From the NCBI GenBank assembly GCA_964402035.1, contig CAYOAM010000002.1:244964-281348 (forward strand): 36,385 bases of DNA, in the 5' to 3' direction. Below are positions 3,649 to 20,416 of the stretch, piece by piece. The DNA is from an uncultured Candidatus Saccharibacteria bacterium (GTDB lineage: Bacteria; Patescibacteriota; Minisyncoccia; Phycocordibacterales; UBA918). The position numbers and the translations under genes were made by a program. Every line of letters begins with the position of its first letter. Within the stretch, counting starts at the first letter, position 1. Under the pieces are notes generated by a model. That model did not search any database and was not told the DNA's origin. It worked only from the letters and a program-made list of their open reading frames with translations.

Positions 3649-4506
3649 TTACTGGAGGTTGATGCCAAATATCCGCTCTGTGTTTTTGAGTAATTGCTCA
3701 CAGACGACTTCCTCATTTTCGCCTCGGATCTCTGCAATTTTTTTCACAACTTCAATCACATACACAGGTTCATTGCGCTTGCCACGAAAAGGTACTGGCG
3801 TGACGTACGGAGCGTCGGTCTCTGCGTGGAGCATAGAAAGGGATGCATGCTTGACGACCTCGTCATAATCATGAGTAAACGTGATCACACCCGTAAATGA
3901 CGTCGTGTAGCCCATATCCCAAAAAAGTTTGGCATCCTCTAGGCTCCCAGCAAAAAAGTGCACGTTCCCCAAGACCTTCGCGTGTGTTTTTAAAATCTCC
4001 CATGCGTCACGATACGCATTTTTATTTTCGCCACTCCTGATATGGAGCATCAATGGCTTCCCTACTTCATTGGCCAATTCTATCTGCTCGATAAAGGCGG
4101 TTTTTTGTAGTTCAAGTGAACTCTCTTCAGTGCGAAAATAGTCGAGCCCACACTCACCTATCGCTACAACCTTCGGATCGTGCGCAAGCTTTCGATAATA
4201 TGCTGGATCAAAAATCTCACCACGTGAAGTAAATCCTTGCTCAACATCAGTAAATTCTTTTGGGTCATGATACGACTTGCAGGTATGCACAGGATGGAGC
4301 CCCACAACAGCATAGACTCCAGACCCATACGCATGCGCAAGATCGACGGCTTTCTGTGCCGTGTCATGCTGAGTACCGACGTTAATCATCGCAACCCCCG
4401 CTTCCTGCGCACGAGAAATCACCTCCGCAGCATCGTCCTTGAAAGCAGAAAGATTTACGTGTGTGTGGACATCAATGTAGGAAAATTTAGAAGACATAAC
4501 AAACAT
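3649..4506 (-). CDS. tatD: TatD-family metal-dependent hydrolase (DNase)
   Basis: YIDVHTHVN (HxH), …AIGECGLDY…, …PLMLHIR…, …VHFFAGS…, …LHAETDAPY… is the TatD motif series. The start is ATG 4506 or 4497. The long ORF extension to 4809 overlaps the upstream gene and is rejected. Confidence 0.88.
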   Translation of the reverse strand: MFVMSSKFSYIDVHTHVNLSAFKDDAAEVISRAQEAGVAMINVGTQHDTAQKAVDLAHAYGSGVYAVVGLHPVHTCKSYHDPKEFTDVEQGFTSRGEIFDPAYYRKLAHDPKVVAIGECGLDYFRTEESSLELQKTAFIEQIELANEVGKPLMLHIRSGENKNAYRDAWEILKTHAKVLGNVHFFAGSLEDAKLFWDMGYTTSFTGVITFTHDYDEVVKHASLSMLHAETDAPYVTPVPFRGKRNEPVYVIEVVKKIAEIRGENEEVVCEQLLKNTERIFGINLQ

Positions 4507-4588
4507 GTGGACGACTAGGATGCGTATTTTTTGAAAACGTCGTTGGGGTGATGGGCAAAGACAAACATATATCCTGGCCTCTATTCTT

Positions 4589-5233
4589 CTACCAGTGGTT
4601 ATTGATAGTAAGTATAAGCCGTTCTCCGACCTCAATAGGTTCAACTCCGTGAAAAGTCCGATCACCAAAAAACAAACAGAGATCATTTGGCTTTGACCGT
4701 ACAACAATATGCGGAAATAGTCGTCGCGAAAGTGGAATATACCGCAACATTCGTGATAAACAATATGCCACAATGCTGTTTTGACTGATACGCAAGTTGG
4801 GAAAAGCAATAAGCTCGCCTCCTGTAGGCGGCATGGTAATTGCGAGCGTTGTATTCACATATGCACCGTCATAATGATAATCTGTTTCTTCTGTTTTCTT
4901 TCCGTCACGAGCATCTTTATAAGGAAACCCAATACGCTGTCGAGCTTCAGAGAGCGGTATGTATTCCTTACCTTCCTGCCGACAACGCTCCTTGTAGATA
5001 GCCTGAAACATTTCAAAAAAAACTGGTGCATGTGCGAGTTCAAACGCAAAAGAATCTTTAAGCACACCCGTCTTCTTGTTGCCCTTACCTTCCGCAGACT
5101 GTTTCAGTTCTAGAAATGCTTCAGGTGTCAAAAAATCAGACAACACAACATAACCATTTTTTAAGATTGTTGAAACGGTTGCACTAACCCATTGAGAATC
5201 AACAAACTGTGATCGGTAGAGCGGATTGATCAT
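4589..5233 (-). CDS. Putative 2-oxoglutarate/Fe(II)-dependent oxygenase (prolyl-hydroxylase-like double-stranded beta-helix)
   Basis: It has an HxD…H…R arrangement: …TDYHYDGAYVN… (H-x-D), then …GDRTFHGVEPIEVGERLILTI (distal His followed by G-x-R). No closer family call can be made by eye. Confidence 0.55.
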   Translation of the reverse strand: MINPLYRSQFVDSQWVSATVSTILKNGYVVLSDFLTPEAFLELKQSAEGKGNKKTGVLKDSFAFELAHAPVFFEMFQAIYKERCRQEGKEYIPLSEARQRIGFPYKDARDGKKTEETDYHYDGAYVNTTLAITMPPTGGELIAFPNLRISQNSIVAYCLSRMLRYIPLSRRLFPHIVVRSKPNDLCLFFGDRTFHGVEPIEVGERLILTINNHW

Positions 5234-5253: not shown

Positions 5254-6690
5254 CTAGTCCTTTCGTAAAAAGAGTGGCTCCGGCATTTTATTCTCTCGCA
5301 CCGCAACACGGATTTTTTCAGCGGTCGCAGGCATAAAGGGTGCTAGGTGTGTCGCAATCTTGTAAATATGGCGGACCATCTTCTCAATATCCTGCTTCCC
5401 GTCGACTACGATAGTAGGATCATCGGACTTTACTTTTTTATACGGTTCGGTTTTTTGGATATACTCATCACCCAACTGTATATGCGAGAACATAATATCC
5501 ATCGCTTCATTGATGGCGTAGCGATCAAGGGCTACACAAAAGGCCTCCTCCAGAGGTTCATCCGAGACGGCCACGGGTTCCAAAAGATTACTTTCAGCAA
5601 GACGCATCACCCGTGAGACCTGATTGCCGAGACCATTCGCCAGATTGGCATTGTACACTTCCTTGAAACGCTCCATAGTGAAATCACTGTCTTCAAATGG
5701 ATGGATGTGACGTGCGAGATAGTAGCGCAATGCTTCAACGCCATATTCAGCAACAATCGTGAGTGGGTCGACAACATTACCTAGCGACTTTGACATCTTC
5801 TGCCCCCCAGACGTAATAAAACCGTGTATGAGAATTTGCTTCGATGGTGGAAGTGCTGCGGACATCAACATCGCTTGCCACATCGCAGCCTGCTGACGAA
5901 CCTGATCTTTTCCTGCCATTTGTGTTCCAGGCCAAAAACCATCAAAGTCTTCTCTTTCGGGCCAACCAGTCGTTGAAATATAGTTAATCAAAGCATCAAA
6001 CCACACATACATCACATGTGCGTCGTCTCCTGGGACCGGTATACCCCATGACATTTTTTCTTTGAGGCGCGAAATTGAAAAATCTTCGAGACCACGCGCG
6101 ACAAAAGCTTTGATCTCATTGAACCGCACATCGGGCACGACAAAATCTGGTTGTTCTGCATAGAGAGCAAGGAGCCTTTCTCCATATTTTGAAAAACGAA
6201 AGAAGTAATTTTCCTCTTCTCTGTTTTCTAGTTCCTTGTTGGGGTGTAGTGGACACCGTCCTTCTACGAGTTCCGAGTCAGTCTTTTCTAGTTCACAACC
6301 CACACAATAGCGCACCTTGTACAGTTTTTTATAAATATCCCCTGCGTCCATGCACCGCTTCCAAAACTCTTGTGCTGCCGCTTTGTGATGTGGATCCGTC
6401 GTACGGATGAAATGCAATATACTCACATCCAATCCAAGGATATTCATTATTTCACGGAACTTTGCAGCATATTCATCGGTATATGCCTGCGTATCTTTTC
6501 CTTGTGCTTGCGCTACCTCATAAATCTTTTGCCCATGTTCATCGGTACCGGTATTAAAGAACACTTCAAATCCGCGAAGTTTTTTATATCGCGCAACAAT
6601 GTCAGCGTGTACAAACTCAAGTGCATGCCCCATGTGTGGCTTATCATTCACGTAAGGTAGCGTCGTCGTAAGATAAAATTTTTCTTGCAT
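5254..6690 (-). CDS. metG: Methionyl-tRNA synthetase (short form, no C-terminal Trbp111 domain)
   Basis: [19 protein letters not shown] (HIGH-type motif), a Cys-knuckle (CVGCE…CPLH) and KMSKSLGN. Confidence 0.95.
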
Positions 6691-6695
6691 GAGTA

Positions 6696-8069
6696 TTATG
6701 CGCGAAGCATGTTAGCAAGCTCCGCTATCGCGACACGCACCTGTTCTCCACTATCTCGATCACGCACCGTCACCGTATTATTTTCCAATGTTTCAAAATC
6801 AATAGTCACACAATGTGGTGTACCGATCTCATCTTGTCTGCGGTAGCGTTTGCCGATATTTCCATTATCATCCCATTCACACATCATCTCTTTTTTTAGC
6901 ATCAGATACACTTCTCGTGCTTTTGCTACAAGCTCTGGTTTATTTCGCAAGAGTGGCGATACCGCAGCCTTGATCGGTGCAAGAGATTTTGGCAGACGAA
7001 GCACGGTGCGCTTTTCTCCGCCCAATTCGTCTTCAGCATAAAATTCAGTGAGCACCGCAAGGAAGGTCCGGTCAAGACCAACCGACGTTTCAACAACATG
7101 CGGAATGTAACGCTCTTTCGTCTCCTGATCAAGGTACGAAAGATCCTTTCCAGAAAAAGTCTGATGTTGTGTCAAATCGTATGCACCGCGTGCGTGCACC
7201 CCTTCAAGCTCCTTAAAACCGAATGGGAATTTGTACTCAATGTCCCACGCTGCCTTGGCATAAAAGACCAAATTTTCATGCTGGTGCCACTTGAGATTTT
7301 CCGCATTAAAACCAAGATCAATATAGTACTGCATGCGTTTCTCGCGCCACACCTCATAGACAACCATCTCTTCTACGGGAGAGACGAACATTTGCATCTC
7401 CATTTGCGTCAATTCCCTCAAGCGAAAAATAAACTGTCGTGGAGCAATCTCATTGCGAAATGCCTTACCGATCTGCGCAATACCAAACGGAACCTTTACA
7501 CGCGAGCTATCAAGTACATTTTTAAAATTGATATAGATCCCCTGACAGGTCTCGCCACGCAAATAGGTAGGCTCCTTTGTCCAATCATTCGAAAAGTTTC
7601 CCAGATTTGTTTGCGCCAGAAGATTGAATCGCTTGACTGCGGTAAAGTTTTTCTTTCCACAGTTATTGCATTTCAAAAGTTCACGCTTCGAATCAAAAAT
7701 AGTATTGATCTCTTCGTCTGACATTTTTTCATCAGCAAAAGCATCGACCGATTCCAAGAGGTGATCTGCCCTGAAACGCGCATGGCATTCTTTGCATGCA
7801 ACCAGAGGATCAGAAAAACCTGATACGTGACCTGAAGCTTCCCACACCTTTGGATGCGTAACAATAGCAGAATCGAGTCCTACAATATTATCTTCATCTT
7901 GCACCATGCTTTTCCACCATGCTGCCTTTATATTGTTTTGGAGCAGTACGCCATAGGGGCCGTAGTCATACACACCACCAAACCCACCATAGATGTCTGA
8001 ACCTGGATACACAAAGCCACGACGCTTTGCGAGAGAGACAATAGTTTCAAGTAGTTGATCCTTTTCCAT
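6696..8069 (-). CDS. glyQS: Glycyl-tRNA synthetase, alpha2 dimeric (GlyQS) type
   Basis: …[25 protein letters not shown]…, class II motifs (FRNEISPR-like FRNEIAPRQ, …GLDR…) and an anticodon-binding C-terminus. Confidence 0.95.
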
Positions 8070-8098
8070 GGCAGAGTTATAGCATATTTCTCCGAAAA

Positions 8099-10066
8099 CT
8101 ACCTGGACTTTCGATTGACACGGCCATCACTATCTTCATATTCAGGATCAGCGAAGAGCTGTGTGGTGAGCGCTGGGGCTTCCGCACGTATGGTTGTACC
8201 AGTAAAGCGATCGACGGCACGAAGCCGCTGCTCATTGAGCAATGTGACGACCTGCCCGACCTGCGTGAGACTTGGACGTATGGACACTTGAAAAGAAGCC
8301 TCACGATCTTCACCTGCTTTCAAATCACCCACTTTCCATGTTACCTCACGAGCATCAGGATTATATGAAAATACGGGTGCAGTGGTGGTGAGATCGAGCC
8401 ATGTGACATACGCAGGAATAGTGGCGGTAACAATACCATCAGTGATAGCATTGGTACCATTTTTGACGTACCACACCATCGTATAGGTAGTGACTTCTTC
8501 GGCGCGCGGCGGCACTGGACCAGTATTTGGAAAAGCGCCCGTGCTATAGAGAGCTCTCGATAAGAGCTTGGCGACACTTTCGACCTTGATTGTCTTACTA
8601 ATGGCGCCCGTTAAACGTTGCGAGACCTGATCTTCGGATACGCGATCACCCTCCGCATTTACCGTGAGCGAAATCTGCGGAGTCCGATCTGCCACCGATG
8701 CGCCATGCGGAGTCACAGAAAACGTCACGGTACTGGAGCGGCCGGGGGCAAGAGCGCTCAATGAATCGGTGGTGTTTTGATCCCAGGTCGCAATATTTGT
8801 CTTTGAGTCATAGAACCCACCCCCTTCAACACGCACCTCCGATTCATTGAGCCCATTTCCTGAAAGATCGACGCTAATCTTGCCATCGTAGAGTGTGGTT
8901 GAGAGCGAATTGGTGAATACAATAGAAATCTGTGTTAATGATTCTGGCGCTATGACGGGTGTTGCATCCTCTTTTCCATCTACCAAAACAGCAATATCAA
9001 GAAATGGTGCCTCTATCGAAATCTCTTTTGATTGTGTTGTAAATATGGATGCCAAACTATAGCGATCACGCTCATTGGGTACGCCAACAGAAAACTTGAA
9101 CGACTGCGTATCATCTTGCTTCCCGATCAAAAGTCCTTTTATTGTGATCGTCTTTTTTTCTTCCGGCTTGAGATTGCTGATCGTCCACGTATCACGTCCA
9201 GATACCGGTTCAGGTGTTGCGCTCGAAAAATCAAAACCAAATGGATACTCCGCTTTAAGTAAGATATCTGAAATAACACTCGGTGCATTTGAAGAAATGG
9301 TCACTGCAAGCTCCACCTCCTGCCCAGAAGCAGTCTTTGTCACATTATCAACCGACAACACAACTGGCGATGAACTGATCTTAAAACGCAATGGTTCTGC
9401 CTCTTTATAGAACGTTGCATTTGAACCCTGAACACGGTACTCAATCGACGCAAGTACAGACTTCTCTTCATTTTCTTCACCAAAAACACGTGCTTTCAAC
9501 GGAACATTGAGCACCTCGCCCGGCTTTATAAGTTCCAGCTGTTTTCGATCGCGAAAGAGTTCCTTACCGTCCTCTGTCGCAGACTGTGTGCCAAAAGGAT
9601 ATTCAATAATGAGTGTTGCAGACTCAATTGGCACAGCATTCTTATTTGCAATCGTGATTTGTATCGGTATCTCCTCACCACCACCAACCGCAAATGGCCC
9701 GCTTGTTTGTATGGAAATATTGTTTCCAGAAATCATGTTTTTTCCAAAGAAAAGAAACGATCCTGAAAGTAGCAGGGCTACGACAAAAAAGATCAGTCCC
9801 GCAAATATTGCTGTTATACGAAATGAACGTCGTCTACTACGCATACTGTTTGAAAGATTTGGAATAACTTCATCGCGTGGAGCCACGACCGCTGGTCCAC
9901 GAGGAGCAGGGGGTTCCACCCCCATATCCCAATTTTTCTTTACTACCTGCGGTGTGTCGGGCAATATTTCGCGTGCATGCTCGCGTGGTGGGGCCCCACG
10001 AGAGTACAAACGCTCGCGCATGCTCTGCAGGCGTTCTTCATAGCTCCCTTCCTCCTTGTTCGGCAT
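8099..10066 (-). CDS. Hypothetical single-pass membrane protein with about five tandem beta-sandwich (CARDB/Ig-like) repeats
   Basis: It has a charged, Pro-rich N-terminus and a TM helix (ITAIFAGLIFFVVALLLSGSFLFF). Repeated modules follow, ending in …EYPFG… and similar. I prefer the ATG at 10066; the track start at 10069 is TTG. Confidence 0.6.
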   Translation of the reverse strand: MPNKEEGSYEERLQSMRERLYSRGAPPREHAREILPDTPQVVKKNWDMGVEPPAPRGPAVVAPRDEVIPNLSNSMRSRRRSFRITAIFAGLIFFVVALLLSGSFLFFGKNMISGNNISIQTSGPFAVGGGEEIPIQITIANKNAVPIESATLIIEYPFGTQSATEDGKELFRDRKQLELIKPGEVLNVPLKARVFGEENEEKSVLASIEYRVQGSNATFYKEAEPLRFKISSSPVVLSVDNVTKTASGQEVELAVTISSNAPSVISDILLKAEYPFGFDFSSATPEPVSGRDTWTISNLKPEEKKTITIKGLLIGKQDDTQSFKFSVGVPNERDRYSLASIFTTQSKEISIEAPFLDIAVLVDGKEDATPVIAPESLTQISIVFTNSLSTTLYDGKISVDLSGNGLNESEVRVEGGGFYDSKTNIATWDQNTTDSLSALAPGRSSTVTFSVTPHGASVADRTPQISLTVNAEGDRVSEDQVSQRLTGAISKTIKVESVAKLLSRALYSTGAFPNTGPVPPRAEEVTTYTMVWYVKNGTNAITDGIVTATIPAYVTWLDLTTTAPVFSYNPDAREVTWKVGDLKAGEDREASFQVSIRPSLTQVGQVVTLLNEQRLRAVDRFTGTTIRAEAPALTTQLFADPEYEDSDGRVNRKSR

Positions 10067-10072
10067 CAAAAA

Positions 10073-10078
10073 AGTATA
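10073..10078 (-). promoter_or_regulatory. Candidate -10 box (TATACT) placed for a leaderless mRNA of the 8099-10066 gene
   Basis: On the minus strand, TATACT ends 6 nt before the ATG at 10066. There is no SD. No good -35 is visible. Confidence 0.3.
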
Positions 10079-10090
10079 GCACAGAGCACC

Positions 10091-10285
10091 TAGAACATGT
10101 TTAAAAACCTACAGATACGGACAAACATGCTGGGAGCATGTTTGTCCAAGAAGCGAGGGCCCGAGCCAGAGAAATATGCCGGGGGCATATTTCTCAATCT
10201 TCTATGTGAGCGGTCCGAGCGACGCAGGTAGTGAAGTATGCTGGGAGCATACTTCACGGTAGATGTGGTTTTTAAACATGTTCTA
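10091..10285. repeat. Hairpin-cassette repeat element (MITE/BIME-like): 19-bp perfect terminal inverted repeats enclosing three GGG-loop hairpins
   Basis: TIRs: tagaacatgtttaaaaacc (10091-10109) and ggtttttaaacatgttcta (10267-10285). Hairpins: GGACAAACATGCT-GGG-AGCATGTTTGTCC (10119-10147), GAGAAATATGCC-GGG-GGCATATTTCTC (10169-10195) and GTGAAGTATGCT-GGG-AGCATACTTCAC (10231-10257). The element ends directly against the recO stop codon. Confidence 0.65.
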
Positions 10286-10876
10286 CTAGAGCTGGCTTAC
10301 TGCAAGCGCTTCTTCAACAACCCGCTTCACATACTTTTTAAACGCCATCTCTTCGGAACAGAGTGCGTACGCCTCTTCAAGGGTCTCGGCGTGGACCATT
10401 GACACGTACTCCTTGTGCGGAGCAACATAGCCAAGTCGATGGAGAACCCGCAGATAAAAGAGTGCTTCATGCGTACCTTCTGTCTCCTTTCGAGTGAGTA
10501 GCTCTAAACCATCAAGAACAAGTGCAAAGAGTTCATGCTGTTGTTGTGCGCCGCCCCCCCGCATCAAACGCCGAATAAAACGCATGGCAGACAGAAGCGA
10601 CTTTCGTGAGGCTCGTGAGCGTGCAGCGTAGTAAAAATTGTCTTTCGCAACAGCGCCAACCACACGCCACTCATACCGACCATGTACCAACGATACCGTA
10701 GAGTAGGAAAAATCCTGCAGCGCGTACCGAAGCTTTGATTGATGCGCGCGAATACCTCCCGCACGCGCATATATCATGCCTGCTTCTTTGGTATAGAGAC
10801 GCAACGTACAATCATGCTCACTCCGCCCACTTCTGCCGCAGACGATTGCTTCTGTTGTGTATGTTTCGTATGCCAC
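10286..10876 (-). CDS. recO: DNA repair protein RecO
   Basis: The N-terminal OB-fold pattern is typical of RecO (…TEAIVCGRS..SEHDCTLRLYTKEAGMIYARAGGIR…SKLRYALQDFSY…), followed by a helical C-terminus. The start is GTG at 10876, overlapping the ileS TAG stop (TAGTG), which suggests translational coupling. Confidence 0.75.
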   Translation of the reverse strand: MAYETYTTEAIVCGRSGRSEHDCTLRLYTKEAGMIYARAGGIRAHQSKLRYALQDFSYSTVSLVHGRYEWRVVGAVAKDNFYYAARSRASRKSLLSAMRFIRRLMRGGGAQQQHELFALVLDGLELLTRKETEGTHEALFYLRVLHRLGYVAPHKEYVSMVHAETLEEAYALCSEEMAFKKYVKRVVEEALAVSQL

Positions 10877-13800
10877 TATTGTTTAGTGATATCAACTTTA
10901 TACGTACGCGATGGCAATGCCAGCACACCGCCCTCGACACCTGCAAATGAAACTGTGTCTGCATTGACCGTTCGCAACAAAACACTCTGATGTGCGAGCA
11001 CATGCGCCTGCCCTTCAGGGTCAGTATCTACACGCAGCACAATACGATCTCCTGGGACTAACCCCATCTCTTTTCGCATATCCTGGATATGACGCATAAG
11101 TTCTCGTACCTCCCCTTCAGCTTGGAGTGCTGGTGTTATATTCCAATCAAAATCTGCCGTATCACTACCTTCAACATCATTTCGTAACATCACTTCTTTC
11201 ACATTGAGCTCATCCTGCAACAGGAGCTTGCATTCATTCCAATATTTCGGCTCCTCCCCATCGTGCTTGATCGTAAGAGAGGCGAGTGGTTGTTTAACGT
11301 GTATGCCCTTTTTAGTACGGAGCATAAGACCGATAGTCGCTTGTGTACGCACAAATGACATGGTCTCTAAAAGTTCGGTATCGATGGCAGCAAACGTAGG
11401 CCAAGTCGCAAGATGTACACTTAGGACATCATACTCCTCACGAACAGACTGCCAGATATACTCTGCAAAAAATGGCATTGAAGGCGCCGAAACCAATGCA
11501 AGCGTCTTTAATACAAAACGGAGTGTCGCCAATGTGTATCGCTGATCGTCAGGCGTACCATATTTGAGGCGCTCTCGTGACCGACGAAGATACCACACCG
11601 AAAGATCGTCAATGAAGTCAGTGATCGGGCGCGTTGCGCGGTCAAGTTCATAGTGCTCCATTCCTTCGGTAGCACTATGCACCACTGCATCTAGGCGCGA
11701 TAGAATCCAGCGATCCAACACATGTGTCGACTCTCGAGCATCTATCGATTGTACATCCGCAGCCTTGTACAGCTCATAAAACGAGAGCACGTTTGCAAGA
11801 CGCCCGATATTTTTGCGCGCGAGTTCCGCCAAACCCTTTTCAGAAAAATTGAGATCTTCACCACGAATAATTGGCGAAGAAAGAAGATAAAACCGAAGCG
11901 AGTCAGCACCATATGCATCGACAACGTCCATGGGGTCAGGATAGTTTTTGAGCTTTTTTGACATCTTGCGTCCATCTTCCGCAAGTACCAAGCCATTGGT
12001 GATCACATGTTTGTATGGTGACACACCAAACAGCGCCACACCCAAGACGAGGAGCGAGTAAAACCACCCGCGTGTCTGATCAACACTTTCAGCAATAAAA
12101 TCTGCGGGATACCCCATCGATTGTGTTGGATCAAAAACATCGATGTGTTCAAACGGATAGTGTTGCTGCCCGTATGGCATCGATCCCGACTCAAACCAAC
12201 AATCAAAAACATCAGGCACACGCACAAGCGGTGTACCATCGGTATCCACCAGTTTTATTTCATCTATATATGGTCGATGAAAGTCGAGGGTAAAATTTTT
12301 GTTGTGCGGTAACGGCGTAAAGGAAAACTCCCGCACTTCGGCATTTTGCAAATAGCCGCCGGATTCATGTACACGCCATGCTCCTTCTACATCAGCCCCT
12401 TGTGCTGCACACTGGATCGCGAAACCGGGCCCCGCATGGGTAATAATCAGGATTCTCTTGCCCGCATATTGTGTTTCGAGTGAGTAGAGGAATGCTCCCA
12501 TGCGCTCTTGCACATCACGCCTATTTTCAAAACCTGGTATGACTTTAGTAAAGCGATCCTTCCACGGACCAAAGAGATTGTTGTATTCGTCCCATGTCTT
12601 GCCCTCAAAAGCTTCAGGGATTTTTAATTCCACAATACGATCATCTTCAACAAGTGCCGCGTCAGGTAAACGAAGCTCTTCCTTGATAATTTCTGCAGTT
12701 TTTTTGGTACGCACAAAACCCGAGTGAATAATGATATCAACTGGAGAAAGTTTTTGTGCTGCGGCCCGTACCTGTTCGATCCCCTTTTCTGTCAACAGAT
12801 CATTATTATCTTTTTTACTGCTGATAATGCCTGTGAGATTTGATGTCGCTTCCCCATGACGCATCAAAAAATAGGTATTTCCGGACTTGGGTACATGTGC
12901 CTTGAGTTCATCAAGCGAACCAAACACTTTGTAGGTATTGGTTTTTTTATTTCTCCAGACCGGCAGTGGCGCACCCCAATACCGCTGGCGAGATACCGCC
13001 CAATCACGTGCTCCTTCGAGCCAATTGCCAAATCGAGCCTGTCCCACATGTTCCGGCACCCACCCGATCTTTTTATTTTCTGAAACAAGTTGATCCTTGA
13101 TATCAGTCACGCGGACAAACCATGACGACGTCGCGTAGTTAAGAAGCGGCGTGTCACAGCGCCAGCAATGCGGATAGCTGTGCACAATGTTTTCTTTTGC
13201 GAACAATCGTCCTTGTTCTTTAAGCAGCTTAAGCACTGCGACATCAGCATCGGTATGTAGTACTTTTTTATCTGCATCATCTTTTGGTTTCACCAACATA
13301 CCCGCAAAGTCAGTCACATGCGACATAAAGTGTCCTTCTGCATCGACATGATGCACAATCGGTATCCCCTTTTCTTTAGCAAGGACCATGTCTTCTTCTC
13401 CATATGCAGGTGCCAAATGCACCGCACCTGTACCGTTTACTAAATCAACATACGGCGCAGCGTACACTTTCCACGCATTCGCCCTTCCTTCAATGTCTCT
13501 GTCTTTATAGTATTCAAACGGTGGCACATATGATTTTCCTACAAGATCCTTTCCCTTCATCTCTTCTAAGATTGTGTACACATCTTGCCCAAACACAGCA
13601 GCGAGGCGATCTTTCGCAAGAATGAATGTGCCCTCCTCACCTTCTTTTGAAACACGGACATACGCAAAATCAGCATTGACCGCCGCAGCCATATTGCCCG
13701 GCAACGTCCAAGGAGTTGTCGTCCAAACAAGAAGCGACGTGTCCGTTATAATCCCCTTTTCGTCCAAAAGTGGAAGCTTTACCGTGACGGCAATATCCTT

Positions 13801-14409
13801 AATATCTTTGTACCCTTGATTAACCTCAAAGTTTGAAAGTGTCGTACCGCAACGTGGACAGAGATGCATTGATTTGTATCCTTCATAGACTAGTCCCTTG
13901 CGATTGAGTTCTGCAAACACCCACCACACACTTTCGGTGTAGGTGCTGTCCATCGTCTTGTAGTCCTGATCCATGTCTACCCAGCGACCCATGCGAGGAA
14001 TGATCCGCTTCCAATCATCAGCGTATTCCAAAACCGCATCACGTGCCGCTTCATTAAATTTTTCAACACCCAACTCTTCGATATCGCGTTTGGTCTTAAG
14101 ACCAAGCTTTTGCTCAATGAGGTTTTCGAGCGGCAGACCATGGCAGTCCCACCCCCACTTTCGCTTTACATGATACCCCTGCATCGTTCGATAGCGCGGT
14201 ATCGTATCTTTGATCGTCCCTGCTAAAATGTGCCCGTGATGTGGAAGTCCGGTCGCAAACGGTGGTCCATCATAAAAAACGTACTCGCCTTTTGGAGACT
14301 CTTTCTCGAGTGTCTTTTCAAAAATACCCTCCCGCTCCCAAAAAGCCAGAATTTCCTCCTCGCGCTTCGCGATATCGCTTATAGGCTTTTTTTCAGTGTT
14401 TTCATTCAT
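10876..14409 (-). CDS. ileS: Isoleucyl-tRNA synthetase (type 2, eukaryote-like) carrying an internal histidine-phosphatase domain insertion
   Basis: …YDGPPFATGLPHHGHILAGTIKD… (HIGH), a CP1 editing region (…TTTPWTLPGN…), …WAVSRQRYWGAPLPVW…, …VPDVFDCWFESGSMPY… and KMSKKLKNYPDP (KMSKS). At 1177 aa it is about 195 aa longer than the colinear core. Confidence 0.95.
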   Translation of the reverse strand: MNENTEKKPISDIAKREEEILAFWEREGIFEKTLEKESPKGEYVFYDGPPFATGLPHHGHILAGTIKDTIPRYRTMQGYHVKRKWGWDCHGLPLENLIEQKLGLKTKRDIEELGVEKFNEAARDAVLEYADDWKRIIPRMGRWVDMDQDYKTMDSTYTESVWWVFAELNRKGLVYEGYKSMHLCPRCGTTLSNFEVNQGYKDIKDIAVTVKLPLLDEKGIITDTSLLVWTTTPWTLPGNMAAAVNADFAYVRVSKEGEEGTFILAKDRLAAVFGQDVYTILEEMKGKDLVGKSYVPPFEYYKDRDIEGRANAWKVYAAPYVDLVNGTGAVHLAPAYGEEDMVLAKEKGIPIVHHVDAEGHFMSHVTDFAGMLVKPKDDADKKVLHTDADVAVLKLLKEQGRLFAKENIVHSYPHCWRCDTPLLNYATSSWFVRVTDIKDQLVSENKKIGWVPEHVGQARFGNWLEGARDWAVSRQRYWGAPLPVWRNKKTNTYKVFGSLDELKAHVPKSGNTYFLMRHGEATSNLTGIISSKKDNNDLLTEKGIEQVRAAAQKLSPVDIIIHSGFVRTKKTAEIIKEELRLPDAALVEDDRIVELKIPEAFEGKTWDEYNNLFGPWKDRFTKVIPGFENRRDVQERMGAFLYSLETQYAGKRILIITHAGPGFAIQCAAQGADVEGAWRVHESGGYLQNAEVREFSFTPLPHNKNFTLDFHRPYIDEIKLVDTDGTPLVRVPDVFDCWFESGSMPYGQQHYPFEHIDVFDPTQSMGYPADFIAESVDQTRGWFYSLLVLGVALFGVSPYKHVITNGLVLAEDGRKMSKKLKNYPDPMDVVDAYGADSLRFYLLSSPIIRGEDLNFSEKGLAELARKNIGRLANVLSFYELYKAADVQSIDARESTHVLDRWILSRLDAVVHSATEGMEHYELDRATRPITDFIDDLSVWYLRRSRERLKYGTPDDQRYTLATLRFVLKTLALVSAPSMPFFAEYIWQSVREEYDVLSVHLATWPTFAAIDTELLETMSFVRTQATIGLMLRTKKGIHVKQPLASLTIKHDGEEPKYWNECKLLLQDELNVKEVMLRNDVEGSDTADFDWNITPALQAEGEVRELMRHIQDMRKEMGLVPGDRIVLRVDTDPEGQAHVLAHQSVLLRTVNADTVSFAGVEGGVLALPSRTYKVDITKQ
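12295..12893 (-). other. Inserted histidine-phosphatase (phosphoglycerate-mutase superfamily) domain within IleRS (about aa 507-705)
   Basis: YFLMRHGEATSN (the RHG codons are at 12861-12853), HSGFVRTKKTAE (S-x3-R-x3-TA), VELKIPEAFEGKTWDE and LIITHAGPG (His codon at 12438-12436). The domain is in frame and bounded by IleRS sequence on both sides. Confidence 0.75.
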
Positions 14410-16482: not shown

Positions 16483-17103
16483 TTAATGTAACAAACTGTC
16501 AACTTTGAGCGCTTTAAGCACCTCTTTATGAACCTCCGCAACATCGGTGGTCGCATCTATGGTGTGTTGATTTTTGTAGTCTCCTATATGCTCCTGATAT
16601 CCCCTCCTCACACGCTCATGGAATGCCAATTTTTCTTCTTCCATGCGATCGGGCGCGCCAACTTGTGCAGCACGCTTGAGACCAATCTCTGGCGGAACAT
16701 CAAGAAAGATGACAACATCGGGAGAAATACCACCGAGTGCGTAGCGTGAGAGTTCCATCAAAAATGGCAGCAGTTCCATACGCTCTCGTCCGTAGATCTG
16801 ATACGCGATCGTGGAGAGATCAAAGCGATTTGAGACAACCGTCTTCCCTTCTTTGAGCGCTGGCTTTATTTTCTCTTCGACAAGCTGCACACGTGCCGCA
16901 AGATACATCAAAAGCTCCGCACGTGGCGTGACGCGTTTGTCATGTAGCAGTATGGCTCGTAGAGCCAAGCCAATATCGGTACTTCCCGGATCACGGACAA
17001 AGAGATAGCCTGCAGGATCAACCACTTTTTGCAGCATGGCAATCTGCGTATCTTTCCCTGCCCCATCACCCCCTTCAAAGACAATGAATTTTCCTGATAA
17101 CAT
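16483..17103 (-). CDS. tmk: Thymidylate kinase
   Basis: KFIVFEGGDGAGKDTQ (P-loop), a DR(F/Y)-type segment (…VSNRFDLSTIAYQ…) and a LID region. Confidence 0.93.
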   Translation of the reverse strand: MLSGKFIVFEGGDGAGKDTQIAMLQKVVDPAGYLFVRDPGSTDIGLALRAILLHDKRVTPRAELLMYLAARVQLVEEKIKPALKEGKTVVSNRFDLSTIAYQIYGRERMELLPFLMELSRYALGGISPDVVIFLDVPPEIGLKRAAQVGAPDRMEEEKLAFHERVRRGYQEHIGDYKNQHTIDATTDVAEVHKEVLKALKVDSLLH

Positions 17104-17106
17104 TTT

Positions 17107-18375
17107 CTATACAAACGAGTCAGGGACGGGGTGTGCAAGACAAATCTCTTTTATTTCTTTGTGAAGTTTTGTTTTTATCACTGCATCATCTTTATGTCGC
17201 AAGGTCTCAATCATAATTTCAGCAACACGAGACGCTTCTTTTTCCTTCATATTTCGAGTGGTCATCGCGGGTGTGCCAAAGCGGATGCCTGAGGGATCCA
17301 TGGGGGATCGTGTATCATCTGCGATCGCATTCATGTTGAGCGAAAGCCCCACTTCATCAAGCACTTTCTGTGCATCTTTGCCACCAACACCTAGGGAACC
17401 GAAGACATCGGCGAGAATAAGGTGATTTGAGGTGCCGCCCGTGATCATACGCACACCCTCTCGTCTAAAGACTTCTTCCATCGCTTTCGCATTTTTCAAA
17501 ATCTGCGCGGCATACGCTTGAAACTGTGGTGTTGCTGCCTCACGAAATGCTATCGCTTTTGCTGCTGTGATATGCATATGTGGCCCTCCCTGAAGTCCGG
17601 GAAACACCGCCTTATCAATCTTCTTTGCATACTCTTCGCTTTCGCGCGTGAGGATCATGCCGCCGCGTGGACCGCGCAGCGTCTTGTGTGTCGTTGTCGT
17701 GATGACATCAAAGCCATCGTCAAATGGATTGCGCGCTGCTTTTCCTGCGATAAGGCCTGCAATATGCGCCATGTCAGCAACCGTGATCGCTCCCACCTCT
17801 TTCGCTATTTCTACGAACTTTGCATACGGCAATTCTCGCGGATACGCAGAAAAACCAGCGAGTATCATCTTGGGCTTTTCACGGAGCGCCGTCTCTCTTA
17901 GGTCATCAAAATCAATCTCTCCCGTCTCGATATTTTTCATCTTGTAACGCACAAAACGAAACACTTTTGCGATAGCCGTCACCGGATGTCCGTGGGTCAA
18001 GTGACCACCATGCGAGAGATCCATGCCAAGGATCGTATCTCCTGGTTCGAGGAGTCCAAAATACATAGCGACGTTCGCGGGAGCACCTGAGAGCGGCTGC
18101 ACGTTTGCAAAATTGCAATTGAAAAGACTCTTCGCTCGTGCGATCGCAATACGCTCGACCGCATCGGTGTATTCTTGCCCGCCATAGTAGCGGCGCCCGG
18201 GATATCCTTCTGAATATTTGTTCGTGAATACCGAACCATTGGCCTCGCGTACCGCACGGGAGACGTAGTTTTCAGAGGGAACAAGTTCAAGTCCTTCTCG
18301 TTCACGCTTCTCTTCCCCCACGATCGTCGCGTACACTTCACCATCTTCTTTTTCAATGAATGGATATTCTGACAT
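17107..18375 (-). CDS. glyA: Serine hydroxymethyltransferase
   Basis: …LELVPSENYVS…, …YSEGYPGRRYYGG…, …VITTTTHKTLRGPRGG (PLP-lysine motif). The start is taken at MSEYPF (18375). Confidence 0.95.
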   Translation of the reverse strand: MSEYPFIEKEDGEVYATIVGEEKREREGLELVPSENYVSRAVREANGSVFTNKYSEGYPGRRYYGGQEYTDAVERIAIARAKSLFNCNFANVQPLSGAPANVAMYFGLLEPGDTILGMDLSHGGHLTHGHPVTAIAKVFRFVRYKMKNIETGEIDFDDLRETALREKPKMILAGFSAYPRELPYAKFVEIAKEVGAITVADMAHIAGLIAGKAARNPFDDGFDVITTTTHKTLRGPRGGMILTRESEEYAKKIDKAVFPGLQGGPHMHITAAKAIAFREAATPQFQAYAAQILKNAKAMEEVFRREGVRMITGGTSNHLILADVFGSLGVGGKDAQKVLDEVGLSLNMNAIADDTRSPMDPSGIRFGTPAMTTRNMKEKEASRVAEIMIETLRHKDDAVIKTKLHKEIKEICLAHPVPDSFV

Positions 18376-18469
18376 ACAAAATAAATGAAAAAATAAAAAT
18401 CGCTGCAATTCTCACACTACTTTGTTGTGTACATCAGATCATAAAGATGGTTTAAGACTTTTGTATAGA

Positions 18470-18799
18470 CTACCGCGTATCACCAGCACCACCCAACACT
18501 CCACGTGATTTTCGCGACGCAAGCTTTTCAATGTTTTTTTCTGCGACCGCATCAAGATCAAGTCCGAGCTCTGTTGAAAGTCGGGCAACGTACCACAAGA
18601 GATCACCAAGCTCAGCTTCGACGATGCCCCGTACTTCATCATTCACCACGCCACCAAAATCTCGTTCGATCTTTTTTATTTTATTGGCAATTTCACCCGC
18701 CTCTCCAGCGAGTCCCAAAGTGGGAAAAATAAAATTGTTGCCCGCATTTGCATAGTGCGCTGTATCACCCGCTCGAGCCTGATATTCTTTAAAATTCAT
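18470..18799 (-). CDS. MazG-like all-alpha nucleoside triphosphate pyrophosphohydrolase
   Basis: …LGLAGEAGEIANKIKK… and …ELGDLLWYVARLS…LGLDLD…NIEKL… give an EEXX(E/D)-type helical pair typical of small MazG/dUTPase-like NTP-PPases. The start is at MNFKEY (18799). Confidence 0.8.
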   Translation of the reverse strand: MNFKEYQARAGDTAHYANAGNNFIFPTLGLAGEAGEIANKIKKIERDFGGVVNDEVRGIVEAELGDLLWYVARLSTELGLDLDAVAEKNIEKLASRKSRGVLGGAGDTR

Positions 18800-18892
18800 A
18801 TGTCGGTAGCATTCACTAATATACAAAATATCATACCACCTCCTTCATAGGTTGGCGTTGGCATAACGCACTATGCTATATTTTCCTTACCT

Positions 18893-19399
18893 ATGGAACC
18901 CTTCAATACCCGCACCTACCTCCGAAATCTACGGAACTTCAAACTGTACTGCCTCTATCGCAAGAGACTGGAAGTCGGAGAATGCCAGTTTTGCAACCCT
19001 GATCAGATGGTAAATGAACAACTTCCCGGTTCAAATGAATACTGGATGACATGGTTCAATATTCGCCCGTACGACAATACCAAGAAACATATCGTCATAA
19101 TCCCCCGACGGCACGTGACTACGCCACGGGATCTGACCCAGGAAGAACGACTGAGTCTGTGGGATGTCATCGATTGGGCGAGCAACTTTTTGGATATACG
19201 TGGAGCAGCATTCGCCTTTCGCTGGGGCGACCCAACACTCACCGGCGCAAGCGTGGACCACCTCCATGCCCACATACTCGTACCTGATGGCACCGGACAA
19301 GCAGTATTCCCACTCGGTAGATCAAAAGAAGATCTCGAAAAGCAACAGGCGCTCCTTATGGGCTGGGAAGAGCGCTACGATCGCGGAGAACGAGAATAG
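18893..19399 (+). CDS. HIT (histidine triad) family nucleotide hydrolase/transferase
   Basis: Histidine triad …VDHLHAHILVP, with an upstream CQFC motif as in the GalT/Ap4A-phosphorylase-like HIT branch. Confidence 0.8.
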   Translation: MEPFNTRTYLRNLRNFKLYCLYRKRLEVGECQFCNPDQMVNEQLPGSNEYWMTWFNIRPYDNTKKHIVIIPRRHVTTPRDLTQEERLSLWDVIDWASNFLDIRGAAFAFRWGDPTLTGASVDHLHAHILVPDGTGQAVFPLGRSKEDLEKQQALLMGWEERYDRGERE

Positions 19400-19435
19400 A
19401 GACACATTCGATAACACCGCACAAAACTATTTGGG

Positions 19436-20416
19436 TTACCTTTTTTCTGGCGCTGCTTTTGCGGTATGCAGATCGCTATTGAACCCACCGGCAACAGTGA
19501 GCTCCGCTTTTATTGATGCTTCAGGGCTATAACCGACAAGTTCTACAAACTCCGGTCTAAAACTCTCGAGTGAATCAAAAGAATTGGTGAATTTTATTGT
19601 CGGAAAATCATGTGGTTCACGGGTCAGCTGTTCTTTCGCTTGTTCAATATGATTTTCATAAATATGCACATCACCAAAGGTGTGTATGAATTCTCCGGGT
19701 TCATAGCCGGTGATTTTGGCAAGCACCAAAGTCAACAGAGCGTAACTACCAATATTAAACGGAACGCCAAGGAAAATATCTGCGGAACGTTGATAGAGCT
19801 GGAGACAAAGCCTGCCGTTCTTGATATTGACCTGATACATATTGTGACAGATTGGAAAACGGCATGCCTTGCCGGGTGCTGCCATCGCATAGAGATACTC
19901 AGGATTCCATGACGACACAATCGCATTGTGACAGTCGGGATCTTTTTTGATTTCAGAGACGACCCACCCAAGCTGATCGACTGCGCGCCCGTCGTGAGCT
20001 GGCCAACGGCGCCACAATTCTCCGTAGATATGTGGAAGCTCCCCGTGTGCTTTCGCAAAATCAGCATCGGATTTGACCTGTGCTATAAATGCATCTTTCT
20101 CGATCGGTGGCACCTCACCCGCGTCGGATTTTCCTTTATAGATTTTATATGGATAGTCGTCCCAGATGTGTACGTCATTATCGACGAGGTATTTGATATT
20201 TGATTGACCAGACAAAAACCAATAGAGTTCATGGAGCACTCCTTTCCAATAGACGCGCTTAGTGGTGAGGAGCGGAAATCCATCCTTAAGATCAAAACGC
20301 ATCTGTCCTCCAAATTGACTATACGTCGCAACACCGGTCCCCTTGTCGACCTGTTTATCGCCCTTCTCAACAAGGCTGCGCATCAGGTCAAGATATTGAT
20401 ATTCAGGATGTTTCAT
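19436..20416 (-). CDS. thyA: Thymidylate synthase (ThyA, long form with a small-domain insert)
   Basis: …FPLLTTKRVYWKGVLHELYWFLSG…, catalytic …PICHNMYQ…, …LYQRSADIFLGVPFNIGSYALL…, …GDVHIYENH…. Confidence 0.95.
   Translation of the reverse strand: MKHPEYQYLDLMRSLVEKGDKQVDKGTGVATYSQFGGQMRFDLKDGFPLLTTKRVYWKGVLHELYWFLSGQSNIKYLVDNDVHIWDDYPYKIYKGKSDAGEVPPIEKDAFIAQVKSDADFAKAHGELPHIYGELWRRWPAHDGRAVDQLGWVVSEIKKDPDCHNAIVSSWNPEYLYAMAAPGKACRFPICHNMYQVNIKNGRLCLQLYQRSADIFLGVPFNIGSYALLTLVLAKITGYEPGEFIHTFGDVHIYENHIEQAKEQLTREPHDFPTIKFTNSFDSLESFRPEFVELVGYSPEASIKAELTVAGGFNSDLHTAKAAPEKR

Follow-up and report, generated by a model that had tools for sequence, protein, structure and literature searches.

The 36,385-nucleotide stretch of DNA analyzed here (the window: positions 244,964 to 281,348 of contig CAYOAM010000002.1, assembly GCA_964402035.1, deposited as an uncultured Candidatus Saccharibacteria bacterium, though of Parcubacteria type) carries an ileS gene whose product, an isoleucyl-tRNA synthetase (IleRS) of 1177 amino acids (aa), holds within its CP3 subdomain an entire histidine-phosphatase domain that is predicted to be active. 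By open reading frame analysis the gene is unbroken, and there is little doubt about what surrounds the guest domain: the whole protein passes the TIGR00392 ileS equivalog cut-off (889.2 bits against 621.4), its Pfam matches comprise tRNA-synt_1 in two halves together with Anticodon_1 and DUF5915, its best solved-structure matches are the human, yeast, Candida and Thermus IleRS, and it is of the eukaryote-like type 2, signature class A of the three classes described below. Both Zn knuckles are intact, and a second editing motif (GTGAVH, aa 326-331) is conserved in 120 homologues. As for the insert, PF00300 (His_Phos_1) matches aa 514-682 of the full protein with 97 bits (E=1.5e-27; gathering threshold 21.7) and the insert alone with 102 bits (E=4e-29). 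AlphaFold2 predicts its fold with a local confidence score (pLDDT) of 94 and a global one (pTM) of 0.91, and Foldseek places the predicted insert, with a probability of 1.00 and template-modeling (TM) scores of ~0.72-0.75, alongside PspA (4IJ5), PhoE (1H2E), CobC (6E4B) and GpgP (4PZ9). By sequence as well as by fold the closest relatives are PspA, the riboflavin-pathway phosphatase HFP, GpgP, CobC, PhoE and TIGAR, and the catalytic residues of PspA have their counterparts in R517, H518, R567, H658 and E594 of the insert.

Over the 120 best homologues the insert has diverged further than its host, with a mean pairwise identity of 48% against 70-82% for the synthetase core, and 12 of its 199 positions are invariant: R517, H518, N524, R567, E594, R636, H658, G543, N511, F697, P701 and N703. 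The first seven of these are also invariant in 81 deeper species representatives, and the position of E594 is occupied by Asp in a few free-standing relatives. Judged from these alignments, the insert is a histidine phosphatase that is predicted to fold and to be active, with a complete catalytic set and an active site under purifying selection. A decayed insert retained for structure alone can be rejected because its catalytic residues are invariant. It is conceivable that the pocket binds a terminal phosphate, for instance the 5'-phosphate of tRNA, without turning it over: the CP insertions of class I synthetases often make tRNA contacts, and a pocket of Arg and His would bind phosphate. However, no fused sequence and no tandem copy (see below) lacks H518 or E594, a constancy that binding alone would not demand, and the embedded domain is acidic, so that we regard a purely structural or tRNA-binding role as highly improbable.

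When the protein is aligned to solved IleRS, residue 503 corresponds to residue 489 of the human and yeast enzymes and residues 705-709 to 496-498, such that ~197 residues stand in place of the ~8 found in the human, yeast, Candida and Thermus enzymes. As CP3 of yeast IleRS comprises residues 459-526 (PMC7955072), from which the domain boundaries used here were transferred, an insertion between yeast 489 and 496 lies inside CP3. It begins ~28 residues after the CP2-3 linker, which CP3 directly follows. In yeast this linker (453-ARDWNVSRNRYWG-465) borders the pocket that accepts the tRNA 3' end and reveromycin A (PMC7955072). No statement about contacts between CP3 and tRNA was found in the paper describing the IleRS-tRNA complex. 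In the full-length model the phosphatase is predicted with a pLDDT of ~86-96 and the overall pTM is 0.68; the CP2-3 linker and the KMSKS loop fall below 50. Downstream, the chain returns to CP3 through a connector, F-T-P-L-P-H-N, that is specific to the fused forms and is missing from the free-standing relatives described below; F697, P701 and N703 within it are invariant, and H702 is present in 119 of the 120 homologues. Compared to the type-2 enzymes of Thermus thermophilus (1ILE), yeast (7D5C and 8WND) and Priestia megaterium (IleRS2, 8C8U), the synthetase is colinear throughout, with all motifs, the Zn knuckles and DUF5915, and differs in having 199 extra residues, a complete enzyme domain, in CP3 where the solved ones have ~8. 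Much of this was anticipated in the original prediction, which had described an in-frame histidine phosphatase inside a type-2 IleRS that elsewhere has only a short linker at the junction, and had read the product as one bifunctional polypeptide with the HIGH and KMSKS motifs intact. A complete phosphatase set beside intact synthetic and editing motifs on a single chain is consistent with this reading, and the motif residues that it had named were exact (R517-H518-G519, R567, E594 and H658). The boundaries it had given, 12295-12893, were right at the start and 2 nt out of frame at the end, the in-frame insert being that listed in Table 1.

Table 1. Features of the ileS locus, in window coordinates; all lie on the reverse strand.
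Feature	Position	Strand	Basis or conservation
ileS open reading frame, 1177 aa, type-2 IleRS with embedded phosphatase	10876..14409	(-)	TIGR00392; solved-structure matches
IleRS N-terminal part, aa 1-506: first Rossmann half, CP core, CP1 editing, CP2, CP2-3 linker, first CP3 strands	12892..14409	(-)	
HIGH signature HHGH, aa 57-60	14230..14241	(-)	H57, G59 and H60 invariant in 120 homologues
Editing-site motif TTTPWT, aa 230-235	13705..13722	(-)	invariant in 120/120 homologues
CP2-3 linker ARDWAVSRQRYWG, aa 467-479	12973..13011	(-)	counterpart of yeast 453-ARDWNVSRNRYWG-465
His_Phos_1 (branch 1) domain, aa 507-705, nested in CP3	12295..12891	(-)	Pfam, AlphaFold2, Foldseek
RHG motif: R517, nucleophile H518 (predicted), G519	12853..12861	(-)	R and H invariant in 120 + 81 sequences and every tandem copy
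N524, conserved Asn of the RHGxxxxN loop	12838..12840	(-)	invariant
R567, second phosphate-binding Arg (predicted), motif S-x3-R-T-x2-T-A	12709..12711	(-)	invariant
E594, proton-donor Glu (predicted), motif D-x-R-x2-E	12628..12630	(-)	invariant in fused forms
R636, invariant Arg in helix alpha-3, motif E-N-R-x-D-V-x2-R	12502..12504	(-)	
H658, second catalytic His (predicted)	12436..12438	(-)	invariant
C-terminal connector F-T-P-L-P-H-N, aa 697-703, from phosphatase back to CP3	12301..12321	(-)	
IleRS C-terminal part, aa 706-1177: CP3 remainder (LDFHRPYID), second Rossmann half, KMSKS, anticodon-binding domain, DUF5915 C-terminal domain	10879..12294	(-)	
KMSK signature, aa 815-818	11956..11967	(-)	conserved in 120 homologues
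recO	10286..10876	(-)	overlaps ileS stop codon; member of the conserved block ileS-recO-DUF11-class II synthetase

The fused architecture is lineage-wide in Parcubacteria/Paceibacteria and not a one-off. The identical protein occurs on three contigs of the public collection, and all 120 of its best homologues (59-70% identical, 1158-1220 aa) also carry PF00300; those with named sources belong to Patescibacteria, Parcubacteria, Paceibacterota or Kaiserbacteria. When one genome per GTDB species was scanned with a profile of the insert, the fusion was found in at least 588 species-representative genomes, the taxa concerned being Kaiser-, Nomura-, Zambryski-, Adler-, Taylor- and Vogelbacteria and RAAC4_OD1_1. 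At all 80 species-representative loci that were fetched (L001-L080) the domain lies in frame directly between the N- and C-terminal halves of IleRS, whose identity to the window protein falls as low as 43%, and in 81 of 81 fused loci the insert occupies the same alignment position. How the family is searched for matters, as a word-index search with the insert alone returned three proteins only, and the family was recovered by an exhaustive profile search together with DNA-pattern scans. That the gene is an assembly chimera, or has recently been disrupted by foreign DNA, is a negligible prospect for which we found no point in favor: it is contradicted by the three contigs, the 120 homologues, the 588 or more species genomes and the unbroken frame, and the composition of the insert matches that of the rest of the gene (GC content 0.456 against 0.472, and 0.417 against 0.449 at third codon positions). 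Whereas the original prediction had asked whether reads might reveal a mis-join, the architecture shared by hundreds of independent orthologues excludes one, its concern over loss of the RHG and His residues is answered by their retention without exception, and the histidine-phosphatase profile match on which it had made itself depend is strong. It had known of no characterized aminoacyl-tRNA synthetase with an embedded phosphatase, and we likewise found no publication that describes one with a histidine phosphatase; what does not stand is any impression of a singular case, as the fusion is in the databases across a whole lineage under generic names ('class I tRNA ligase family protein' or 'isoleucyl-tRNA synthetase' only) and a split form exists as well. 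Both parent families are well known; of their combination, which is present in public data, we found no description.

Two observations concern the records themselves. In four metagenome-assembled genomes the ileS gene contains an apparent frameshift, upstream of the insert in L020, L039 and L047 or just after it in L059; these are probably assembly or sequencing errors, pseudogenization being the other possibility. Many third-party annotation (TPA) records of such genomes that are labeled 'uncultured Candidatus Saccharibacteria' or 'uncultured Gammaproteobacteria' hold loci typical of Parcubacteria or Microgenomates, and one locus record among L001-L240 is labeled 'candidate division WOR-3'; organism labels of this kind look unreliable.

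The phosphatase also exists without its host. The exhaustive profile search yielded 226 representatives at E<=1e-30, and among the best 150 of these, 110 are flanked by IleRS sequence on at least one side, the remainder matching over the insert only. Many of the insert-only matches are genuine proteins of ~189 aa that start with Met and bear the family signature N-x-Y-x3-R-H-G-E-A-x-S-N. The closest free-standing relative looked up, P0001, is encoded between argS, with which it overlaps by 14 nt, and an insert-less ileS of 986 codons that begins 8 nt further on and is followed by recO, a DUF11-like gene and a class II aminoacyl-tRNA synthetase gene. In sister lineages the closest free-standing relatives show the order argS-phosphatase-ileS-recO, with the phosphatase directly upstream of ileS, and at the split locus L081, that of P0001, the order ileS-recO-DUF11-class II synthetase is the same as in the window; this shared block shows that the window locus and the split loci correspond in position. 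A genome scan with a profile built from eight free-standing sequences led to 80 further loci (L082-L161) from Staskawicz-, Nealson-, Wolfe- and Wildermuthbacteria. At 78 of them ileS is on the same strand, the other two stopping at a contig edge; at 51 ileS lies 3-150 nt downstream of the phosphatase, and at ~15 the domain is instead embedded in IleRS. L131 (398-4053) is the sole locus with ileS on the strand opposite to the free-standing phosphatase, 1.1 kb apart, and is an exception to the gene order. The phosphatase family is specific to Paceibacteria and comes in two forms, either fused at one site in CP3 or as a gene of ~189 codons immediately upstream of ileS.

Three IleRS signature classes can be distinguished among Patescibacteria, and two of them contain both forms of the phosphatase: class A (PFATGxPHYGH / KMSK) has 45 fused and 18 split loci, class B (PTANGKPGIHH / KMSKS) has 33 and 9, and class C (ITANNPMGVHHAW / EMHKS) has 26 split and no fused ones. 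In class C, the class of Staskawiczbacteria and Microgenomates, HIGH is replaced by 'MGVHHAW' and KMSKS by 'EMHKS', and the enzyme still passes the ileS equivalog cut-off. Neighbor-joining trees of the IleRS core require 6-8 changes between fused and split states in 20 of 20 bootstraps, and pairs such as L160 (fused) and L111 (split), which are 65% identical, are nearer to each other than to any locus in their own state. Phosphatase identity tracks the fusion state and IleRS identity tracks the signature class; this mismatch could reflect an old paralogy with reciprocal loss, replacement by a foreign ileS, attraction in the tree driven by charge, or repeated transposition. A fusion by read-through to the N-terminus of IleRS was not seen at any of these loci, although the phosphatase gene ends 3-26 nt before ileS. 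Because insertion at the internal site has come up repeatedly, whereas the simpler fusion at the terminus was never seen, it seems that the position of the phosphatase matters and that the module may work at the catalytic face of the synthetase, in a role linked to the cleft and plausibly on a phosphorylated tRNA 3' end. Further points in its favor are the invariant catalytic set and junction residues, the close association with ileS, and the place of CP3 just behind the linker that borders the tRNA 3'-end pocket in yeast. We favor this reading tentatively, at somewhat below an even chance; the present results have raised the likelihood of a role that depends on geometry at the synthetase.

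A second line of evidence comes from charge. A comparison of free-standing forms (L082-L161) with embedded ones (L001-L080) gives a median isoelectric point of 9.7 for the former and 5.6 for the latter, and net charges per 100 aa of +7 against +1.1 for their own IleRS cores in the free-standing case and of -3 against -2.1 in the embedded case. The difference persists after control for GC content (p=4e-9), and the charge gained by the free forms is located on the strand before E594, on the cap and on the RHG loop. That the free form is so basic suggests that its target is a polyanion, which an enzyme that is not attached to its partner must find for itself.

If the phosphatase does act at the face of the synthetase, it would remove a phosphomonoester from a ligand held by IleRS. 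The fused form would do so in cis, and the free form after docking or binding to tRNA. The substrate that we would favor is a tRNA acceptor end bearing either a (pyro)phosphate that a toxin has added to A76 or a 2'/3'-phosphate that remains after RNA cleavage, since such a group blocks aminoacylation. Once tRNA-Ile is bound to IleRS, its CCA end would enter the phosphatase pocket in a manner resembling its visits to the editing site. There the phosphate would pass to H518 and E594 would donate a proton to the departing hydroxyl, which would leave a clean end ready for charging. The free basic protein of the sister lineages would be the same enzyme, binding tRNA or IleRS. The same anatomy would also suit a different ligand, such as a nucleotide or the phosphate of an inhibitor bound in the cleft. 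The roles named in the original prediction (dephosphorylation of damaged tRNA-Ile ends, hydrolysis of a by-product or inhibitor, or a regulatory phospho-switch) are likewise hypotheses. A block of the proposed kind has a precedent in toxSAS toxins, which pyrophosphorylate the tRNA CCA end and thereby block charging (PMC11559606; bioRxiv 10.1101/2021.04.30.441581), and the module might be compared with the small alarmone hydrolase (SAH) antitoxins of FaRel2 and CapRel systems. The parallel would be one of function only, as SAH enzymes are HD-domain proteins and not histidine phosphatases, and no toxSAS was found here, where no search aimed at one was made. That the domain is a third catalytic site beside those for synthesis and editing, dephosphorylating the acceptor end of tRNA before charging, is a specific proposal that we regard as rather unlikely.

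Several observations weigh against a role at the catalytic face, and in particular against the tRNA end as substrate. All close characterized relatives (PspA, PhoE, CobC, GpgP, HFP and TIGAR) are phosphatases of small molecules, and to our knowledge no member of the histidine-phosphatase superfamily acts on RNA ends. Repair confined to tRNA-Ile has no obvious rationale, and with a pTM of 0.68 the full-length model does not fix the orientation of the predicted pocket toward the synthetic site. Among loci picked by class C IleRS alone (L162-L240), the phosphatase lies upstream of ileS in 22 of the ~33 closest relatives, with ~11 lacking it; in L175 and L180 the argS stop codon is 6-8 nt from the ileS start, and the phosphatase is therefore cleanly absent. 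At ~47 of ~47 Microgenomates-type loci, which have the same IleRS class C, there is no phosphatase near ileS. The module is thus dispensable, an accessory restricted to Paceibacteria and no requirement of this IleRS type. Adjacency by itself could be no more than inherited gene order, as argS and recO are conserved neighbors too. Finally, IleRS P0195, P0197, P0207 and P0247 (1379-1468 aa) contain two tandem phosphatase copies and P0126 contains four, all located in CP3 and each complete copy keeping the full catalytic residue set; tandem active copies suggest selection for enzyme dosage or for several substrates, and would be needless for the repair of one tRNA end. The tandem architecture is also represented by the protein fragments P0174, P0202, P0214, P0222, P0244 and P0253. 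With the class C loci included, a single syntenic locus can be seen in three states: argS-phosphatase-ileS (as at L162:1285-3501), argS-ileS with the phosphatase in CP3, and argS beside ileS without a phosphatase (L175:1898-3501 and L180:1957-3501).

These same observations lend some weight to a plainer explanation, namely that an ordinary PhoE/PspA/CobC-like phosphatase, acting on phosphoserine, a sugar phosphate or a nucleotide, was an operon neighbor of ileS, became lodged in a permissive loop and has been kept for its own activity. Its nearest solved or characterized relatives are all metabolite phosphatases, and the free-standing family, with more than 1000 members, all generically named, goes by 'PhoE' or 'putative phosphoglycerate mutase' in public sources. 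CP3 is the IleRS subdomain with the greatest difference in topology among the Candida, Thermus and Staphylococcus enzymes (PMC7191050), and as the most variable subdomain it is likely to tolerate insertions. The genes argS and recO are equally syntenic without a known functional link, tandem duplication with intact sites fits selection for dosage, the module is missing from some close relatives, and the surrounding genes are rich in nucleotide metabolism. What such a passenger does not readily explain is why simple fusion by loss of a stop codon, over 3-26 nt, is never seen when the harder insertion into CP3 is found in two IleRS classes at the same site, why N511, F697, P701 and N703 at the junctions never vary, or why free and embedded forms should differ in charge near the active site if both act on the same small metabolite. 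Nor does any equivalog model assign it a metabolic role: the insert scores 64-69 bits on CobC alpha-ribazole phosphatase (TIGR03162; cut-off 162.9), 64-68 bits on the archaeal-type dPGM (NF038349; cut-off 225, on which the free-standing P0001 reaches 100), and 38-43 bits on PspA phosphoserine phosphatase, its best structural match (NF045917; cut-off 350), and it is likewise under the cut-off for GpmB. As every one of these NCBIfam scores is below its cut-off, no specific metabolic function can be assigned. We consider a metabolic passenger possible, though on the doubtful side.

The histidine-phosphatase superfamily also includes the protein phosphatases SixA, PGAM5 and Sts-1, and HipA-type kinases inactivate aminoacyl-tRNA synthetases by phosphorylation. 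From this general background one could imagine that the domain dephosphorylates a residue of its own IleRS chain (one close to the KMSKS loop, for instance) or of another translation factor, thereby countering kinase toxins or regulating charging. A conserved position in CP3 and a rigid connector would suit a fixed target on the same protein, and there is a weak match to SixA phosphohistidine phosphatase (TIGR00249), of 32-36 bits and over the N-terminal half only. This is well under the SixA cut-off of 74.5, however, and the closest folds are those of metabolite phosphatases; no kinase was found in the neighborhood of ileS in the window, a phosphatase directed at its own chain hardly needs two to four copies, and the basicity of the free form is left unexplained. 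A phospho-switch of this kind appears improbable to us.

Other proteins offer partial precedents for the architecture. The small branch-1 phosphatases PspA (4IJ5), PhoE/YhfR (1H2E and 1EBB), CobC (6E4B and 6NRU), GpgP (4PZ9) and HFP (9MMH) share with the insert the fold, the minimal size of ~200 aa and the catalytic residues, but the insert is only 20-28% identical to them, has its own signature and is fused to or beside ileS. An extra enzyme domain within IleRS has been seen before in the form that carries an N-acetyltransferase (GNAT) domain (NF040702); there the guest has the GNAT fold and occupies model positions ~281-447 in the CP1 region, whereas the guest here is in CP3. The window protein does not belong to that group (316 bits against a cut-off of 1999, with no acetyltransferase match in Pfam), nor is it a mupirocin-resistant IleRS of the MupA or MupB type (NF000257 and NF000258; 653 and 707 bits against a cut-off of 1900). 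In the Rv2228c-type RNase H / acid phosphatase (NF005567) a CobC-like phosphatase is joined to a nucleic-acid enzyme, and the insert matches the phosphatase half with 48-52 bits, far under the cut-off of 326; that fusion is end to end with RNase HI, not internal. Although aminoacyl-tRNA synthetases rank among the enzymes studied in most detail, we know of no characterized one with a phosphatase domain, and of few with extra catalytic domains beyond those for editing.

In the window, the genes downstream of ileS (5254-10876, reverse strand) encode RecO, a 656-aa DUF11 surface-type protein, a class II aminoacyl-tRNA synthetase (tRNA-synt_2b with an HGTP anticodon domain) and MetRS; RecO is short, at 196 aa, with RecO_N the sole domain detected. 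Genes for nucleotide metabolism cluster at 16483-20416 and 28912-31779 on the same strand (thymidylate kinase, serine hydroxymethyltransferase, thymidylate synthase and the large subunit of a class I ribonucleotide reductase, the last with two ATP-cone stretches), and a TatD DNase is encoded at 3649-4809. Neither an Rfam family nor a tRNA gene was found in the window.

What the fusion offers is a phosphatase, apparently active by prediction, that hundreds of uncultivated Parcubacteria species conserve within the catalytic body of an essential synthetase, with the split counterpart of their relatives providing a natural experiment. If it does act on tRNA ends, it would represent a new kind of tRNA quality control or counter-defense, and the histidine-phosphatase superfamily would gain its first member directed at RNA. 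Should it instead be a metabolic passenger, it would be a clear case of reduced genomes lodging one enzyme within another, and metabolic reconstructions of these organisms, in which the gene may be counted as a 'phosphoglycerate mutase', would need care.

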